11,008 nt of DNA from a virus (lineage: Duplodnaviria > Heunggongvirae > Uroviricota > Caudoviricetes), in IMG/VR virus record IMGVR_UViG_3300029577_000076, positions 1-11,008 of that record, one strand, 5' to 3'. The stretch's first letter is position 1. Each line of letters opens with the position of its first letter. Below the pieces are notes generated by a model. That model was not told where the DNA came from. It did not search any database and was given only the letters and a program-made list of their open reading frames with translations. Made by a program: the position numbers and the translations under genes. This document shows positions 2,112-11,008 of the stretch, one piece after another.

Positions 2112-3365
2112 ATGGCTAACCAATTAGCAAAAGACCTTGAAATCATGTTCGAAAACTACGTTGAAGGCTTTGAGGCCGCCTGCGTAGTTTCCCGTAACGC
2201 TAAAAAATTCCGTCCCGGTGATACAGCAATGCAGCGAGCAGGTGATGTTCTGTATCGTCCGCAGCATTACCACATGAACATTGAGGAAGGCCTCGATCTC
2301 AGCAGCAAAACGCCAACAGCACTGGTTCAGCGCCTTGTTCCTTCAGTGTTCAAGGAGCCGAAAAACATTCTGTACACTCTGGATGCGCGTGAAATGCGTG
2401 ACCCGGAACATAAAACTGAAGCTGGTCGCGCCGCAGGTATGCGCCTTGCTGCACAGATTGACTCGGACCTGATTTCCATGGTCACGCAGCGTGCTACTAA
2501 CGTGATCACAATGGCTGACTCAACCACTGGTTCACAGGGCCGTGATTTGTGGAACTGTGCGGCAGGTATTGATGCCACCATGACGGCGATTGGGGTACCA
2601 CAGGGTATCAACCGCCGCTCTTTCTGGAACCCCTTCAACTACAAAGACCTTGCTGGCGAGCTTGGTCACCGTGCCTATGCTCAGGGCGCAACCCTGACAG
2701 CATACGAAAAAGCGCAGATCCCTCCGGTTGCGTCCTTCGATAGCTACAAGACCGATATTTCTGGTCGTGTTCCGAAGGGTACAGCAACTTCCATTACGCT
2801 GGCAGCAGCACCTGCGCACAAGGTTGAAGCGAAAGATGCTAACGATATGCCAGTGGATAACCGACAGGGGACCATTACGGTATCTGCTGAAGGTTTGCAG
2901 GTTGGCGATGCGTTTACCATCGCAGGGGTGAATTCCGTACACCAGATCACCAAAGATACCACCGGGCAGCCGCAGGTATTCCGCGTTCTGGCAGTTAGCG
3001 GAACGACAGTAACTATCTCCCCGAAAATTCTGCCGCCTGACAACGCGGATGTCGCCAGCCGTCCATATGCAAACGTTGATGCTAATGCGGCAAGTAGCGC
3101 AGCAATCACCATTCTCAACAAAAATGCCGCACCGGCTAACCTGTTCTGGGCTGATGGTTCTGTTGAACTGATGTACGGCAAACTGGCGTTCCCGACTGGT
3201 CAGGGTCCACAGGTAATGACAGCAACCACCGAGCAGGGCGCTACGCTGATCATGTCTTACGCCTTCGACCACATCAAAGGCGTAACCACTGCGCGTTTCA
3301 CCACTCTGTACGGTTGCTCTGTACTGGTTCCTGAATATACGGGCATCGTTATTGCCGGGCAGTAA
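2112..3365 (+). CDS. gp5: Major capsid (coat) protein, P22-like (gene 5 family)
   Basis: A 417-aa ORF with GGAG 8 nt upstream. Motifs align to recalled P22 coat protein: [15 protein letters not shown] vs [33 protein letters not shown] vs [32 protein letters not shown] vs NVFWADDAIRI. Overall similarity is low, suggesting a non-P22 coat subtype. Confidence 0.88.
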   Translation: [417 protein letters not shown]

Positions 3366-3371
3366 TTTAGG

Positions 3372-3395
3372 TGGGGCTTCGGCCCCATTTTTATT
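3372..3395 (+). terminator. Intrinsic (rho-independent) terminator immediately 3' of the coat gene
   Basis: Stem GGGGC (3373-3377), loop TTCG (3378-3381), stem GCCCC (3382-3386), with a possible extra T3372-A3387 pair, followed by ATTTTTATT (3387-3395). It starts 7 nt after the coat stop codon. Confidence 0.6.
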
Positions 3396-3406
3396 GGGAG
3401 AAGACA

Positions 3407-3595
3407 ATGGCACGAACAATGCTCTATAAGCCGGGCAACATGATCACCTGTGGTCAGTTTGCTGTCGATTACATCATTGTTGATGACGAAGAAGTTAAAT
3501 CTCACCTGAAAAAAGGCTGGGTAAAAACTCCTGAAGAAACCGCAACGAAGCAAAAAGTGGCTAAGGCGGAAGAAGATGGCGAAAACGAAGGGTGA
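3407..3595 (+). CDS. Small hypothetical protein (62 aa) between coat and gene 4
   Basis: ATG at 3407 is preceded by GGGAG (3396-3400). The GTG start at 3371 used in the ORF track falls inside the terminator hairpin and is unlikely. The product MARTMLYKPGNMITCGQFAVDYIIVDDEEV... has an acidic C-terminus and its last 20 nt overlap the gp4 start. I recall P22 having a small unnamed ORF in this position but cannot verify it. Confidence 0.5.
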   Translation: MARTMLYKPGNMITCGQFAVDYIIVDDEEVKSHLKKGWVKTPEETATKQKVAKAEEDGENEG

Positions 3596-4037
3596 TCTCG
3601 TTCTTAAGGCTTTACGAAAAGCCGGGCTGTATTCCAATGCCACGTTGACAGATGCTGACCCTCAGGCAATTGAAGATGCCATTAATGACCTCGAAGACAT
3701 GATGGCAGCATGGCAGGCAAAAGGTATCGAGCTTGGGTATCAGTTTGCTGATACAGAAAACGGCATCATGCCGTTACCTGACGATGATTCAGGTATCCCT
3801 GCATGGGCAAATGATGGCGTCGCTTTGAAACTCGCTGTGCAAGTGTGCATGGATAACGTCATTCAGCCGTCAGACGCTCTCCTTACCGCTGCTGACAGTG
3901 CATATCAGACAATCTGTATCGCTTTAACCAAAATACCACCACTTGAGCGGAGAAATGACATGCCTCGCGGTAGTGGTAACAAAAGCGCGTTTACGTGGAA
4001 TCGGTTTTACATCGAGAAAGATGATCCGAGTACGTGA
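3576..4037 (+). CDS. gp4: Head completion / tail adaptor protein (P22 gene 4-like)
   Basis: A 153-aa ORF whose N-terminus MAKTKGDLVLKALRKAGLYSNATLTDADPQAIEDAINDLEDMMAAW aligns closely to recalled P22 gp4 ([44 protein letters not shown]). The C-terminal RGSGNK motif also matches PTGSGN. Confidence 0.88.
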   Translation: MAKTKGDLVLKALRKAGLYSNATLTDADPQAIEDAINDLEDMMAAWQAKGIELGYQFADTENGIMPLPDDDSGIPAWANDGVALKLAVQVCMDNVIQPSDALLTAADSAYQTICIALTKIPPLERRNDMPRGSGNKSAFTWNRFYIEKDDPST

Positions 4038-4046
4038 GGTGAATAA

Positions 4047-5465
4047 ATGCCGATTCAGCAACTTCCGCTTATGAAAGGTGTCGGCAAAGACTTTCGAAAC
4101 GCCGACTATATCGACTATCTGCCAGTGAATATGTTGGCAACCCCCAAAGAAATCCTGAACAGCAGCGGATATCTTCGCTCATTCCCGGGCATTGCCAAAC
4201 GCTCTGATGTGAACGGTGTATCGCGCGGCGTCGAGTACAACATGGCGCAGAATGCTGTCTATCGTGTGTGTGGCGGCAAGCTCTACAAAGGCGAAAGCGA
4301 AGTCGGTGACGTCGCTGGAAGTGGTCGCGTATCAATGGCGCATGGTCGAACATCTCAGGCTGTAGGTGTTAATGGTCAACTGGTTGAGTATCGCTATGAT
4401 GGCACGGTTAAAACCGTCTCAAACTGGCCTACAGACAGCGGATTCACGCAGTATGAGTTAGGTTCGGTTCGCGACATTACACGCTTACGTGGCCGTTATG
4501 CGTGGTCAAAAGACGGAACTGATTCATGGTTCATCACTGACCTTGAAGACGAATCGCATCCTGACCGTTACAGCGCACAATATCGTGCCGAGTCGCAGCC
4601 TGACGGCATCATCGGCATAGGAACATGGCGAGACTTCATCGTCTGCTTTGGTTCATCGACGATTGAATATTTCTCCCTGACTGGCGCAACCACAGTTGGT
4701 GCTGCTTTGTATGTCGCACAGCCATCACTGATGGTGCAGAAAGGCATTGCCGGGACTTACTGCAAAACGCCATTCGCTGATTCGTATGCGTTCATCAGCA
4801 ATCCGGCAACAGGTGCGCCGTCTGTTTACATCATCGGCTCTGGTCAGGTATCACCAATCGCCAGCGCGAGCATTGAGAAAATTCTCCGCTCCTACACTGC
4901 TAATGAACTGGCTGATGGTGTGATGGAGTCTCTGCGATTTGATGCGCATGAGCTGCTGATTATCCATCTTCCGCGCCATGTTCTCGTGTACGACGCATCT
5001 TCAAGCGCCAATGGTCCGCAATGGTGTGTGCTGAAAACGGGCCTGTATGACGATGTGTACCGCGCTATCGACTTCATTTACGAAGGCAATCAGATAACGT
5101 GCGGTGATAAGCTGGAGTCCGTGACCGGGAAATTGCAATTCGACATCAGCAGCCAGTACGACAAGCAACAGGAACACCTGCTGTTTACTCCACTGTTCAA
5201 AGCGGATAACGCCAGAGTGTTCGACCTTGAGGTTGAATCGTCAACTGGCGTTGCGCAGTACGCCGACCGCCTGTTCCTATCGGCAACCACTGACGGCATC
5301 AATTACGGACGTGAGCAGATGATTGAGCAGAATGAACCGTTCGTTTACGACAAGCGTGTTTTGTGGAAGCGAGTAGGGCGCATCAGGAAAAATGTCGGCT
5401 TCAAATTGCGCGTTATCACGAAGTCACCTGTCACTCTGTCTGGCGCTCAGATAAGGATTGAGTAA
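4047..5465 (+). CDS. gp10: Head completion / tail accessory protein (P22 gene 10-like)
   Basis: A 472-aa ORF, the length I recall for P22 gp10, positioned between gene 4 and the tail needle. GAGGTGA lies about 6 nt upstream and the stop overlaps the next start (TAATG at 5463-5467). Confidence 0.82.
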
Positions 5466-6166
5466 TGGCTGATTCGAATCTCAATGTGCCGGTAATCATC
5501 CAAGCTACGCGGCTCGACACATCAATCCTTCCACGCAATATCTTCAGCCAGTCTTACCTGCTGTATGTCATTAATCAGGGGGCTGATGTCGGTGCAATTG
5601 CTGGAAAGGCAAATCAGGCTGGTCAGGGCGCTTATGATGCCCAAGTAAAAAACGATGAACAGGATGTCGAACTGGCTGACCACGATGCAAGAATCACCGC
5701 AAACACAAAAGCGATAAATCTCCTTGAGGTCAGGTTAACAACCGCCGAAGGGAAGATAGTCGTACTGCGTAGCGATGTTGATTACTTGCTGGATGAGGTT
5801 ATCGATATTCAGGCGCATCTGGTCACTGTTGACCAAAGACTGGATGGCGTAGAAAGCGATGTATCTGACATTAAGAGTGATTACGTATCGAAAACCGTAA
5901 CCGAATCGCAGTCTCTTGCGTCACCGCTGGATGTAAAAACATCATATTCAGTTGATGGAATTCAGGTTGTTGGAGCAAGAAATACCGGATGGACTGCAGC
6001 CACAGGTACACCTCTTCTTGGCTCATTCAACGCTAACCAGTCATACACGGTCGGCACTACGTACACACAATCCGAAGTCGCGGCTCTCGCTACAGGTTTG
6101 CAGCAGGCGCGGCAGCGTATTCTGGCGCTTGAAACAGCACTTAGATTACATGGGCTGATTGACTGA
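5465..6166 (+). CDS. gp26: Tail needle / cell-envelope-penetrating fibre (P22 gene 26-like)
   Basis: A 233-aa ORF. The first ~70 residues ([77 protein letters not shown]) are near-identical to recalled P22 gp26. The C-terminus ...[13 protein letters not shown] also matches P22 (ALEDALRAHGLID). The start overlaps the gp10 stop. Confidence 0.9.
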
Positions 6167-7326: not shown

Positions 7327-8637
7327 ATGGCTACGTGGCAACAGGGTATTAATTCTGGTGGTTTTCTGGCTGGCATCGGTACGCAAAATGAGAATGCGCC
7401 AAAGGCAAGCGACATTAACGCAACGCTTGGTCTGATCCGAGAAAACAATGAACTGGCTCGCTCAGGTGCAAATAACGTTGGTCTGACCGCGTTACGTGGT
7501 CTGGCTGGAGTTGCTGAGATTTACAATCAGGAACAGCAACAGAAAGCGATTAGTGCGTTCAATAAGGTTCATGCTGATGCATGGGCTTCTGGTGATCCAT
7601 CGGGACTATTTAAGTTTGCCCAGGAAAATCCAGCGTTTGTTGCACAGGCACAACAGGCGTTTTCCGGTCTTAATGAGCAGCAACGCAACGATATGGGCGA
7701 TTTAGCCATGAGGGCTAACGTCGCTCTTTCTCAGGGACCGGAAGCCTACAGTAAATTCATTACTGACAACAAGGACAGGTTAAATCGCGTGGGGGCGAAT
7801 GCTGACTGGATGATTCAGACAGGTATTCAGAATCCAGAGCAGCTATCACACATGCTGACTACTATGTCTCTCGGTGCGCTTGGACCAGAAAAGGCGTTTG
7901 CTGTTCAGGACAAGATGGCTGGTCGTGAAATTGACCGAGGCAAACTTGCAGAGACAATCCGCAGCAATCAGGCTGGAGAAGCACTAACAGCTCGAGGTCA
8001 GGACATCCAGATACGTGGACAGAACATCAGCGCACAGAATGCTGCTCTTTCCCGAGAAATACAAAGAGCAGAATTACAAGAAAAGGCTCTGGACAGACAG
8101 ATAGCCAGAGAAAGCAATCAGTTAAAGCTTGAAGAGCTAAAACAGAAACAGGCAGATGTTAGGCAAAAGGCTGACATAGCCCGCGCTGACAGGCAGGCCG
8201 CCGCTCAGGGTGCAGTTGATACGTTCAGCACCGCGCTTGATTCTCTCAACGAGATAGAGCAAAGCCCCGGCCTTTCAAAAGCAGTAGGAATTCGCTCAGC
8301 GTTTCCGACAGTTCCTGGCTCTGATGCGGCTAACTTTGAAGCAAGGCTCGACACCTTTAAAGCTCAAACATTCCTTCCTATGGTGCAGTCCCTGAAGGGT
8401 ATGGGTGCTCTTTCAGATGCTGAGGGTAAAAAATTATCCGATGCGGTTGGTGCCCTAAGCCCCAAAATGAGTGAAAAGGCTTTTCGTGACTCTNNNNNNN
8501 NNNGAAAGATTAGAAATCAGCTTGAAAGCAAGTTGAGCACTGTTAAAAAACAGTTTGATTATCAGGAGCCAGTACAGAATACGCCAGCGCAACAACCTAC
8601 TACTGGCAGTAATTTTTCTTCACTATGGGGTGATTAA
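7327..8637 (+). CDS. Ejection (DNA transfer) protein, P22 gene 20-like; contains a 10-N assembly gap at 8494-8503
   Basis: A 436-codon ORF with AAGGGG upstream, in the syntenic position between gene 7 and gene 16. The central region is charged coiled-coil-like ([48 protein letters not shown]). The frame is maintained across the N run and the stop overlaps the next start (TAATG), but the true length is uncertain. Confidence 0.72.
8494..8503. other. Run of 10 N (assembly gap or masked bases)
   Basis: Literal nnnnnnnnnn in the sequence, inside the gene-20 homologue. Confidence 0.99.
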
Positions 8638-10634
8638 TGGCTAAAGCATGGAAAGATGTTATCGCCTCTCCACAGTATCAGGCGTTAGCACCAGAACAAA
8701 AAGCGCAGGCTCAGGAGCAATACTTCAATGAAGTCGTGGCCCCGCAAGCCGGAGAAAATGCAGAGCAGGCTAAGCAAGCTTTCTATGCTGCCTATCCATT
8801 GCCATCTGTGCAGAAAGTGGAGACACAGCAACCAGTAGCACAGCAACAACCACAGCAAAGTGGATTTATGTCTGATCTTGGCGAAGCAGTAAAAGAGACT
8901 GGTCGCGGACTGGTGCAGGCTGGCGTGAACGTGGCAAACATACCTGCATCAGTTGCCGATGCTGTAACAAGCGCGGCGGCTTGGGCTGGCGGTAAACTCG
9001 GAATTGGCGATGGGACATATCAACCAGCGCCACGAGTAACAACGCAGGGATTAGAGCAGGACTTTGGCCTTCAGCAAGGCGCGCTGACTCCACAAACGAC
9101 AGAGGGAAGGGTATTTGCTGAAGCATTGCCTTACCTCACTCCTGCTGGCGTTGAGAGAGCGGCAACACAGGCACCAACACTCGCTGGTAGAATCGCTCAG
9201 GGTGCAACTCGCCTTCTCGCTGAAAACGCAGTCGGGTCACTTGCTGCAAATAGTGCGAAAGATGATGCGGAAGCACTCGCTACCGATTTAGGCATTGGCG
9301 TTCTGGCTGGCGGCGCTATTAACGCTGCCGGACGTGGATTAGGCGCTGCTTATCGTGGCGTTCGTGGTGCTATTGCACCAGAAGCGCAGCAAGCTATCAG
9401 ATTTGCAGAGCGTGAAGGAGTGCCTCTGCACACCACAGACCTGTTACAACCAACTTCCCGCGTCGGAAAAATGGCGCAGACTACAGCAGAAAATATCCCT
9501 CTGGCTGGCACAAGCGGAATGAGAGCAACGCAACAGGAAGCGAGAAGCCAGTTGGTGCAGAGATTTGCTGATAAATTCGGTGAGTATGATCCAGCGGTTG
9601 TTATTGACAGCCTTAAAGCGAAAACATCAGGAATTCGTCGTGCTGCTGGGAACCGTCTTGAGCAGGTACAGAATGCAATGGCAGGAATCAACATTCAACC
9701 TGCCAGAGCAATTCAGCAGATAGATACTGAGATATCTAACCTGCAGAAGCTTGGTAAGGTCGCTGATAACGAGACGATTTCAAAACTTCAATCCTATCGT
9801 GATGAGCTTATTCGCAATGCTGGTCCTGATGGTCCGGTAAATCTGGATTTGAAGCAATTAAGCGATCTACGCAGCCAGTTCAGAATGGACGTGAAGGGTG
9901 AGAGACCAGTGCTACCAAACCGTTCCGATGCCGCCATTCAGCGCGTTTACAAGGCAATGACCGACGATATCAATGGTGCCATTGGTCAGAATCTTGGCAA
10001 CGATACTCTCCGTAAATATCAGCAGGCCAATGCCGTCTACGCTGACGAAGCGGCGAAACTAAAGAATACCAGGCTGAAGAATGTTCTCATGAAAGGCGAC
10101 CTGACGCCGGAAGTTGTCAATAACATGCTATTCAGCAAGAACAAATCTGAAATTAAGACGCTGTATAACTCAGTTGGTCGTGTTGGCAGGGCGCAAATGC
10201 GCAATGGCATCATTGGAAAGGCGATGGAGAAATCAGGTGGTTCCCCTGATCAGTTCCTTCGACAGCTTAACATCCTGCAAAACCAGACTGGCATCACATT
10301 TAAGGGGCAGGACGCTGCTTATCTGAAAGGATTGAAAAACTATCTGCAATCCACGCAGCAGGCTGCAAAAGCGGCAGTAACAACACCAACAGGGCAGCAA
10401 ACCATCCCGTTCATTATCGGGTATGGGACGGCAATGAACCCGGCGACAACTGGCGCAGCGGTAAGCTACGGACTTCTTACTCGCGCCTACGAGAGCGAGC
10501 CATTCAGAAATGCAATGCTCCGAATGGCAAACACACCACGCGGATCAACAGCGTTTGAGAAAGCCATGCAGCAGGCGCAAAAGGCCATTAACGCCCTGAC
10601 TCAGGGTGCCAAGTCTGATGCGTTGTCAGAATAG
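8637..10634 (+). CDS. Ejection (DNA transfer) protein, P22 gene 16-like
   Basis: A 665-aa ORF that is the last gene of the plus-strand block, translationally coupled to the preceding gene. It is Ala/Gly/Gln-rich with long predicted helical segments. Assignment is by synteny and size class (P22 gp16 is about 609 aa); no direct sequence recollection. Confidence 0.72.
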   Translation: MAKAWKDVIASPQYQALAPEQKAQAQEQYFNEVVAPQAGENAEQAKQAFYAAYPLPSVQKVETQQPVAQQQPQQSGFMSDLGEAVKETGRGLVQAGVNVANIPASVADAVTSAAAWAGGKLGIGDGTYQPAPRVTTQGLEQDFGLQQGALTPQTTEGRVFAEALPYLTPAGVERAATQAPTLAGRIAQGATRLLAENAVGSLAANSAKDDAEALATDLGIGVLAGGAINAAGRGLGAAYRGVRGAIAPEAQQAIRFAEREGVPLHTTDLLQPTSRVGKMAQTTAENIPLAGTSGMRATQQEARSQLVQRFADKFGEYDPAVVIDSLKAKTSGIRRAAGNRLEQVQNAMAGINIQPARAIQQIDTEISNLQKLGKVADNETISKLQSYRDELIRNAGPDGPVNLDLKQLSDLRSQFRMDVKGERPVLPNRSDAAIQRVYKAMTDDINGAIGQNLGNDTLRKYQQANAVYADEAAKLKNTRLKNVLMKGDLTPEVVNNMLFSKNKSEIKTLYNSVGRVGRAQMRNGIIGKAMEKSGGSPDQFLRQLNILQNQTGITFKGQDAAYLKGLKNYLQSTQQAAKAAVTTPTGQQTIPFIIGYGTAMNPATTGAAVSYGLLTRAYESEPFRNAMLRMANTPRGSTAFEKAMQQAQKAINALTQGAKSDALSE

Positions 10635-10723
10635 CTTCGCAAACACCAGGAACGTGCAAAAACCAAATATGTAGAACGCAATATTCATCATATCTCTTTG
10701 CATAAATCCTCCGTAATGGATGG

Positions 10724-10984
10724 TTAGTTGCTGTCTTTTTTATATAGCTCCTTGAGCGTATCAAAGACAATTTTCTTAACCATATCAGATTGTTGTTCTG
10801 CCATATGCTCTGCATCGTCAATGTAAACTGATGCAGAGCTTTGTTTATCCAATGATTCTTCAATCGCTGCAATTATCTCTGAGTTCAGCGACCTGTTATT
10901 CATCTTCGCACGCTGCTTAATTTTCGCGTGAAGTTCATGCGGAAGTCTCAAGTGAAACTGCGCCTCGTCGTATTTGCTGTACAT
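10724..10984 (-). CDS. mnt: Mnt-like ribbon-helix-helix repressor (immI region)
   Basis: An 86-aa minus-strand ORF. Its C-terminal half DDAEHMAEQQSDMVKKIVFDTLKELYKK closely matches recalled P22 Mnt (NDAERLADEQSELVKKMVFDTLKDLYKK). The N-terminus has the Arc/Mnt motif QFHLRLPHEL...NNRSLNSEI (P22 Mnt HFNFRMPMEV...NGRSMNSEL). GAGG lies about 8 nt upstream of the ATG. The reading frame stays open to the window end, so a longer N-terminus cannot be excluded. Confidence 0.85.
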   Translation of the reverse strand: MYSKYDEAQFHLRLPHELHAKIKQRAKMNNRSLNSEIIAAIEESLDKQSSASVYIDDAEHMAEQQSDMVKKIVFDTLKELYKKDSN

Positions 10985-11008
10985 CCTTGATGCCTCACCA
11001 GTTGGGTG

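Follow-up and report, generated by a model that had tools for sequence, protein, structure and literature searches.

An mnt homologue behind the gene 16 homologue

The window (the whole stretch of 11,008 nucleotides that was analysed) represents the virion-gene arm of an E. coli Lederbergvirus that is CUS-3/720R6-like. Over the last 709 nt it matches prophages of many E. coli genomes at 97-99% identity, with some relatives at 99.3%. At least 80% of these 709 nt is present in 140 of the 5426 complete genomes of E. coli, among them E. coli W and APEC_AN-25. The homologue of P22 gene 16 is the last gene of the late operon before the moron, in synteny with IME10, E. coli W, and APEC_AN-25, and the mnt homologue follows directly after it on the strand opposite to the late operon (Table 1). 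In IME10, Sf101, E. coli W, and APEC_AN-25 the gene order is gene 16 homologue, mnt on the minus strand, a spacer of 121 bp, and the tailspike gene on the plus strand, beyond which are found an O-antigen-modifying gene and then intS beside a tRNA-Arg gene. Past the end of the window, the distance from the mnt ATG to the tailspike ATG (ATGTCAGATATCACC) would be about 121 nt, as in these relatives.

Table 1. Features in the last part of the window, in window coordinates
Feature	Position	Strand	Basis and remarks
P22 gene-16-type DNA transfer (ejection) protein	8637..10634	+	PHROG 770 'DNA transfer protein', E 9.5e-239; synteny
25-aa hydrophobic ORF, MQRDMMNIAFYIFGFCTFLVFAKLF	10626..10703	-	ORF list; start 20 nt past the mnt stop; GGAGGA ribosome site
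mnt homologue, CDS	10724..10984	-	86 codons and TAA stop; ORF list, Pfam, PDB, PHROG 795
Mnt-type C-terminal tetramerisation helix, residues 57-82	10739..10816	-	Pfam PF11423 Repressor_Mnt, E 1.5e-12
Ribbon-helix-helix (RHH) DNA-binding domain, residues 7-49	10838..10966	-	Pfam PF03869 Arc, E 8.7e-15
Beta-strand, codons 9-15, CAG TTT CAC TTG AGA CTT CCG = QFHLRLP	10940..10960	-	Direct sequence reading
Last 24 nt of the mnt leader, in mnt sense CACCCAACTGGTGAGGCATCAAGG	10985..11008	-	GAGG at 10993-10996; 3' arm of the GATGCC/GGCATC repeat

The open reading frame of the mnt homologue translates into 86 aa (MYSKYDEAQFHLRLPHELHAKIKQRAKMNNRSLNSEIIAAIEESLDKQSSASVYIDDAEHMAEQQSDMVKKIVFDTLKELYKKDSN). 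Among the solved structures, P22 Mnt 1-76 (PDB 1mnt) is the best match (E 2.8e-18, ungapped over residues 6-79), and the Mnt tetramerisation domain (PDB 1qey) is also matched (E 8.9e-8). Arc is a weaker match in the structural database (E 1e-3), and PHROG 795 is matched with an E of 4e-35. According to sequence comparison with Repressor_Mnt and 1qey the C-terminal helix of the Mnt tetramerisation type is present, and we infer that the gene product is a functional Mnt-family repressor, whose RHH dimers are predicted to tetramerise via this helix. The identity to P22 Mnt is 47% over the whole protein, 41% (18/44) in the RHH domain (residues 6-49), and 65.5% (19/29) in the tail. The statement of an earlier sequence-only reading of the window that the C-terminal half is nearly the same as in P22 Mnt was therefore too strong. 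The change in the DNA-reading strand that it had also described was recovered by the ungapped alignment, in which Gln9 is equivalent to His6 of Mnt, His11 to Asn8, and Arg13 to Arg10. The strand is thus QFHLRLP in the window versus HFNFRMP in P22 Mnt and QFNLRWP in P22 Arc, and careful alignment does not restore the P22 recognition residues: His6 is replaced by Gln and Asn8 by His, while Arg10 is kept. QFHLRLP, or the same strand with the last Pro changed to Thr or Ser, is found in 93 of the 120 best homologue clusters (clustered at 90% identity).

A GAGG Shine-Dalgarno sequence is located 8 nt ahead of the mnt ATG. In the annotation of Sf101 (gp14, extract 4007-4300) the protein has 97 aa and begins at an upstream in-frame ATG (MPFHPTGEASR-MYSK…). 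Because this upstream ATG is out of frame or followed by a stop in ST160 and Gally, the start of the 86-aa form is the more likely one. Metagenomic calls of mnt homologues are often 97-139 aa long. Codon 60 of the window copy (10805-10807, minus strand) encodes a His within the tetramerisation helix (…DDAEHMAE…) that is private to this copy: the residue is Arg in all 80 IMG/VR loci, and the 102 of the 120 best homologue clusters that contain the DDAE motif have Arg (100 clusters), Lys (1), or Ser (1).

RefSeq names P22 mnt (P22 extract 2992-3243) and its homologues 'partition protein ATPase', a label whose source is PHROG 795, and the GenBank name of the Sf101 homologue is 'putative chromosome segregation ATPase'. 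The label was rejected for the window gene because the product has 86 aa and only RHH and Mnt-tail domains were matched but no Walker-type domain. For an RHH repressor of 83-86 aa the ATPase label is a misannotation.

Palindromes at the Omnt position and the modules they form

The window ends 24 nt upstream of the mnt ATG, which is short of the operator position, and the candidate operator was read from relatives that are 91-99% identical in protein. The 24 nt of leader within the window are identical to those of IME10, Sf101, E. coli W, and APEC_AN-25. Sequences upstream of mnt were collected from P22, epsilon34, ST160, Gally, Brookers, VSe13, JEP4, IME10, and Sf101, and the set was enlarged by a pair of E. 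coli prophages, ten further enterobacterial genomes, and 80 contigs of IMG/VR. In an alignment of 19 representatives each contains one palindrome, always in the same register and directly 5' of an ATTG, whose TTG is the start of the -35 hexamer of P22 Pmnt. The P22 palindrome is the one annotated in the P22 record as mnt operator AGGTCCACCGTGGACCT. The palindromes are listed by type of reading strand in Table 2.

Table 2. Reading strands of Mnt homologues and palindromes at the Omnt position
Strand	Found in	Palindrome
HFNFRMP	P22, epsilon34, Pluralibacter, Pectobacterium	(A/G)GTCCACCGTGGACCT, i.e. (A/G)GTCCAC-C-GTGGACCT
QFNLRL[PT]	ST160, Gally, Brookers, Symbiopectobacterium, Providencia	AGACCAC-N-GTGGTCT, left half degenerate in some
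QFNFRMP	Phlomobacter	ATATCAC-C-GTGATAT
QFHLRL[PTS]	Window type, Escherichia sp. E1V33, VSe13, JEP4, Buttiauxella, Serratia	RTACC-N5-GGTAC, A-rich centre

RTACC-N5-GGTAY occupies the Omnt position in more than 90 relatives that have an N-terminal domain of the window type. The palindromes of the QFH type read CATACCGAAATGGTACT in E. coli, CATACCGAAACGGTACG in JEP4, and GTACCAAAATGGTAC in Buttiauxella, where the palindrome is perfect. Between lineages of this class the flanks on the tailspike side are unrelated and TACC-N5-GGTA is still kept. The palindrome of the E. coli subtype is short, consisting of the TACC/GGTA core with 4 of 8 positions symmetric. GTGGACC is given as the experimentally best half-site of P22 Mnt in a passage of PMC2726951 that cites Fields et al. 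1997. If this half-site is numbered 1-7, positions 3-4 are GG in nearly every class, the exception being GA in Phlomobacter, and the Arg of the strand at the position of Mnt Arg10 is likewise constant across the classes. The class with Asn changed to His has lost the G at position 1 of the half-site and has GTA at positions 4-6.

In the entire 38.7-kb genome of Sf101, TACC-N5-GGTA is found only once, at the spot equivalent to Omnt. Degenerate extra Mnt sites elsewhere in the Sf101 genome are at chance level only, as are sites with one mismatch to TACC-N5-GGTA elsewhere in the window. The half-sites of the relatives' palindrome differ from those of P22 Omnt, GGTCCAC-C-GTGGACC being replaced by RTACC-N5-GGTAY at the same position. 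A changed operator specificity, which the sequence-only reading had proposed from the strand, appears to be well supported by this comparison. The cognate operator would be a single palindrome RTACC-N5-GGTAY (AGTACCATTTCGGTATG in E. coli W, in tailspike sense). Based on the offset in E. coli W, the candidate operator would be located at about 11044-11060, 36-52 nt past the window end and about 60-76 nt before the start codon, one base away from the TTG of the -35 hexamer of a promoter corresponding to P22 Pmnt. The candidate operator may be weakened in the window's own lineage. In the closest relative, APEC_AN-25 (extract L010, 6745-6761), one half reads TACT for TACC, and the -35 hexamer is TTGGGT for TTGAGT.

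The operator type appears to follow the N-terminal domain and not the tail. The Mnts of VSe13 and JEP4 share the window-like N-terminal domain (QFHLRLT), the leader, and the operator type, and have an unrelated C-terminal tail (…VKEVAADILRKEKTRS). P22 and ST160 have tails like that of the window and differ in strand and site. In addition, a third tail, ending in …FETLKTMYSNNKKET, occurs together with the N-terminal domain of the window type. By megablast the similarity of the window to VSe13 is confined to positions 10890-11008 (92%), that is to the first approximately 31 codons and the leader. The similarity ends at about 10890, and the recombination joint must therefore be inside mnt. Taken across the enterobacterial phages, three or four modules of strand plus operator seem to exist. 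Because strand and site are co-inherited, the association between them represents about three to four evolutionary events and not a large number of independent ones. Knight and Sauer reportedly found in 1989 that a short stretch at the N-terminus decides between the specificities of Arc and Mnt, and the pattern in VSe13, JEP4, and the window is a natural counterpart of their domain swap.

A probable orphan mnt and its possible functions

The tailspike N-terminus adjoins mnt in 86 of 90 related loci searched by tblastn, and arc is absent by the same search from all 86 QFH- and QFNL-type loci with enough flanking sequence. Among the 90 loci, arc was seen only beside Mnts of the HFNF and QFNF types, namely in Pluralibacter, Pectobacterium, and Phlomobacter; it is also found beside mnt in P22 and epsilon34. 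There is no ant beside mnt in IME10, Sf101, E. coli W, and APEC_AN-25, and in the complete Sf101 genome ant is absent from the moron region. Neither the TTGACA of the Pant -35 nor the Arc operator is kept in the spacers of the orphan types. To judge from these relatives, mnt of the window is an orphan, an mnt-only 'ant moron' between the gene 16 homologue and the tailspike gene of a P22-like E. coli prophage or phage. Such an arrangement is known for ST64T, ST104, and Para1 (PMC2629481). A second immunity region in the sense of P22 is excluded from the reading because the relatives have no antirepressor to control. Of the 'distinct immI specificity' that had been suggested from the sequence, the changed operator is thus retained at the level of sequence comparison, but the immunity region is not, the relatives being devoid of arc, ant, and sar.

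Some loci deviate from the common arrangement. In JEP4 (extract 3270-5930), genes of the Rha type, the KilA type, and for a C2-like repressor are found between gene 16 and the QFH-type mnt. They run towards mnt and the tailspike gene, and represent another kind of antirepressor-like cargo in the same moron. In E. coli SCPM-O-B-8794 (L013) the tailspike gene is apparently interrupted by an insertion after a few codons, and the Mnt strand is QLHLRLP. In Citrobacter (L016) the mnt frame ends after four codons (MYSK), and the operator-like site is degenerate (TACC…AGTA).

The promoter scan recovered both Pant and Pmnt in P22. In the E. coli W spacer the same scan did not find a sigma-70 promoter directed towards the tailspike gene (Pant-like). 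Its single hit there, CTGACA-17-AATGAT, is on the mnt strand and precedes the palindrome. By eye, only weak TG-extended -10-like hexamers are seen in the tailspike direction. Hexamers of the Pmnt type are kept in all orphan types (TTGnnn, TAnnAT), at a spacing of 17 nt in VSe13, JEP4, ST160, Gally, and Brookers and of 15 nt in the E. coli subtype (TTGAGT, TACGAT). In every class the palindrome is one base away from the TTG of the -35 hexamer, and this juxtaposition, being kept throughout, argues for direct autoregulation of the mnt transcript. In the prophage, the Mnt tetramer would bind the candidate site and would mainly autoregulate the mnt unit including the 25-aa ORF. Transcription running through the site in the tailspike direction may be impeded by bound Mnt as well. 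A role of mnt in transcription into the tailspike gene has been the subject of speculation by Villafane et al.

The 25-aa ORF, which is strongly hydrophobic and has a strong ribosome site, overlaps the 3' end of the gene 16 homologue on the other strand and is without PGAP annotation. It does not match any family, and is intact with few substitutions in 47 of 80 related loci. The ORF is probably co-transcribed with mnt, and its product may be a small membrane peptide that is made together with Mnt in the lysogen.

The longest inverted repeats in the 121-bp spacer of E. coli W are ATGCAATCA-N5-TGGTTGCAT, which abuts the TACC site, and GATGCC-N18-GGCATC, and given their length it could be supposed that one of these is the true operator. 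GATGCC-N18-GGCATC (E. coli W extract L011, 6690-6719) spans the mnt leader, the Shine-Dalgarno sequence, and a -10-like hexamer. It is kept in both the QFH and the QFNL orphan types, with arms TTTGTC/GACAAA in Brookers, and so does not track the strand. Its inner stem is variable (CACC/GGTG, CACTT/AAGTG, GTCC/GGAC), and RNAalifold gives a stem of 6 pairs in which both sides are changed at one pair only, which is weak covariation. ATGCAATCA-N5-TGGTTGCAT (E. coli W extract L011, 6759-6781) is situated between the candidate operator and the ribosome site of the tailspike gene and is limited to the E. coli subtype: E1V33 has other arms at this position, and the sequences in VSe13, JEP4, Buttiauxella, and Serratia are unrelated. 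A T/C polymorphism in the arms leads to a G-U pair in the tailspike-sense RNA. The gene 9 leader of P22, ST160, and VSe13 carries CCGTAGCCAYGCTGCGG instead, which means a different hairpin in P22. An RNA hairpin fits ATGCAATCA/TGGTTGCAT because of the G-U polymorphism and the P22 hairpin at the same place, and tailspike leaders may contain a hairpin quite generally. That either repeat is the operator seems very unlikely to us.

Three further explanations concern the locus as a whole. A complete immI region of new specificity would need arc, sar, and ant just past the window end, repressed via the new operator. The window indeed stops short of the gene neighbouring mnt, and arc adjoins mnt in P22, epsilon34, Pluralibacter, Pectobacterium, and Phlomobacter. 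However, all 86 QFH and QFNL loci with enough flank have the tailspike gene and no arc beside mnt, and among them are relatives whose DNA matches the final 709 nt of the window at 99.3% identity. Together with the missing Pant -35 and Arc operator, and with a moron without ant in Sf101, this makes such a region very improbable. It could also be that the strand differences are neutral, so that a P22-type Omnt is still recognised or there is no defined operator. The conserved Arg of the strand and the half-site GG at 3-4 would agree with this, but no site with up to three mismatches to GGTCCACNGTGGACC is found near mnt in Sf101 or in the prophage arm of E. coli W, and a different conserved palindrome occupies the Omnt position. 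As the N-terminal region is moreover said to set the specificities of Arc and Mnt, neutrality is very unlikely. Finally, mnt might be a decaying, functionless remnant of a former immI region, a possibility that was raised for the mnt-like gene in the phage L paper. Altered or truncated copies do occur occasionally (the Citrobacter copy, the QLHLRLP copy, and truncated clusters), and the Pmnt-like spacer has only 15 nt in the E. coli subtype. Against this, dN/dS is 0.04-0.35 among the E. coli-type copies and E1V33, and 0.01-0.07 with saturated dS when the first 45 codons are compared with VSe13, JEP4, Serratia, and Buttiauxella. Within the 80 IMG/VR contigs the N-terminal domain hardly varies, about 140 complete genomes of E. 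coli have an intact copy of the gene, and the palindrome is kept across genera while the flanks have diverged. The 120 best clusters at 90% identity are nearly all of the window type, some with hundreds of members, and such clusters are named only "Arc family DNA-binding protein". Orphan mnt is under purifying selection. Because of the low dN/dS, the near-invariant N-terminal domain, and the wide spread, a decaying remnant is quite unlikely.

The reading that we prefer, and that we regard as likely, is that the window encodes a functional Mnt of an mnt-only moron. This Mnt would constitute a separate specificity module with RTACC-N5-GGTAY as cognate site; it would act mainly in autoregulation and would control no antirepressor. 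Since orphan mnt is widespread, is under purifying selection, and has kept its palindrome one base from the promoter, it probably has a function beyond those identified so far. A more far-reaching reading combines at least three to four natural modules with a re-specification of the strand by the change of Asn to His at Mnt-8/Arc-11 and with a new job for the orphan Mnt. This combination is possible, but we put it forward only tentatively and would rather doubt it as a whole. If it were true, the change of Asn to His would go along with the loss of the central CAC-N-GTG and the gain of a GTAC core (TACC-N5-GGTA), and a natural re-specification of an RHH reading strand could extend the recognition rules of Arc and Mnt. 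The new job could then be, for example, the gating of tailspike transcription or the driving of a small membrane-peptide moron in the lysogen.

Relation to known repressors

Mnt and Arc are textbook models of DNA recognition by a beta-sheet. The co-inherited natural variants (HFNF, QFNL, QFH) provide ready test pairs for the rules of RHH recognition, and variants of strand and operator could supply repressor and operator parts that do not interfere with each other. The puzzle that was raised for phages L and ST64T is sharpened by a widespread and selected mnt that is without an antirepressor and keeps a palindrome at the cognate position. In the literature searched there is no description of a QFH-type Mnt or of the Mnt of Sf101. 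Public genomes (IME10, Sf101, E. coli W) already contain this common allele under poor or wrong names, and the practical consequences are therefore small.

The mnt homologue resembles P22 mnt in its position between gene 16 and gene 9 and in its orientation. Both proteins combine an RHH N-terminal domain with a C-terminal tetramerisation helix, the tails being 65.5% identical. In the relatives of the window, as in P22, a palindrome is separated by one base from the TTG of a -35 hexamer, that of the putative mnt promoter in the relatives. The equivalent of Arg10 and the half-site GG at 3-4 are kept. In contrast, the strand is HFNFRMP in P22 and QFHLRLP in the window, whose N-terminal arm is longer by two residues. 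Omnt of P22 is GGTCCAC-C-GTGGACC, whereas the relatives of the window have RTACC-N5-GGTAY with an A-rich centre and are without Pant, arc, sar, and ant.

The phages L, ST64T, ST104, ST160, SE1, and Gally also have mnt alone beside the tailspike gene, without arc and ant, and the same type of tail. Their strand, QFNLRLP, is only one residue away from QFHLRLP of the window, but their palindrome AGACCAC-N-GTGGTCT keeps the central CAC/GTG of P22 Omnt, and the proteins are 55-57% identical to that of the window. P22 Arc shares the RHH fold, the Gln and Arg of its strand QFNLRWP, and the residue numbering (Gln9, residue 11, Arg13). It differs in having no tetramerisation tail, in its operator ATGATAGAAGCACTCTACTAT, and in residue 11, which is Asn in Arc and His here, and the identity is 34%. 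Most similar in the DNA-binding part are the Mnts of Salmonella phage VSe13 and Escherichia phage JEP4, which have a nearly identical N-terminal domain (QFHLRLT), the palindrome CATACC-N5-GGTACG, and a nearly identical leader, but an unrelated C-terminal tail …VKEVAADILRKEKTRS that is joined near position 10890 of the window.
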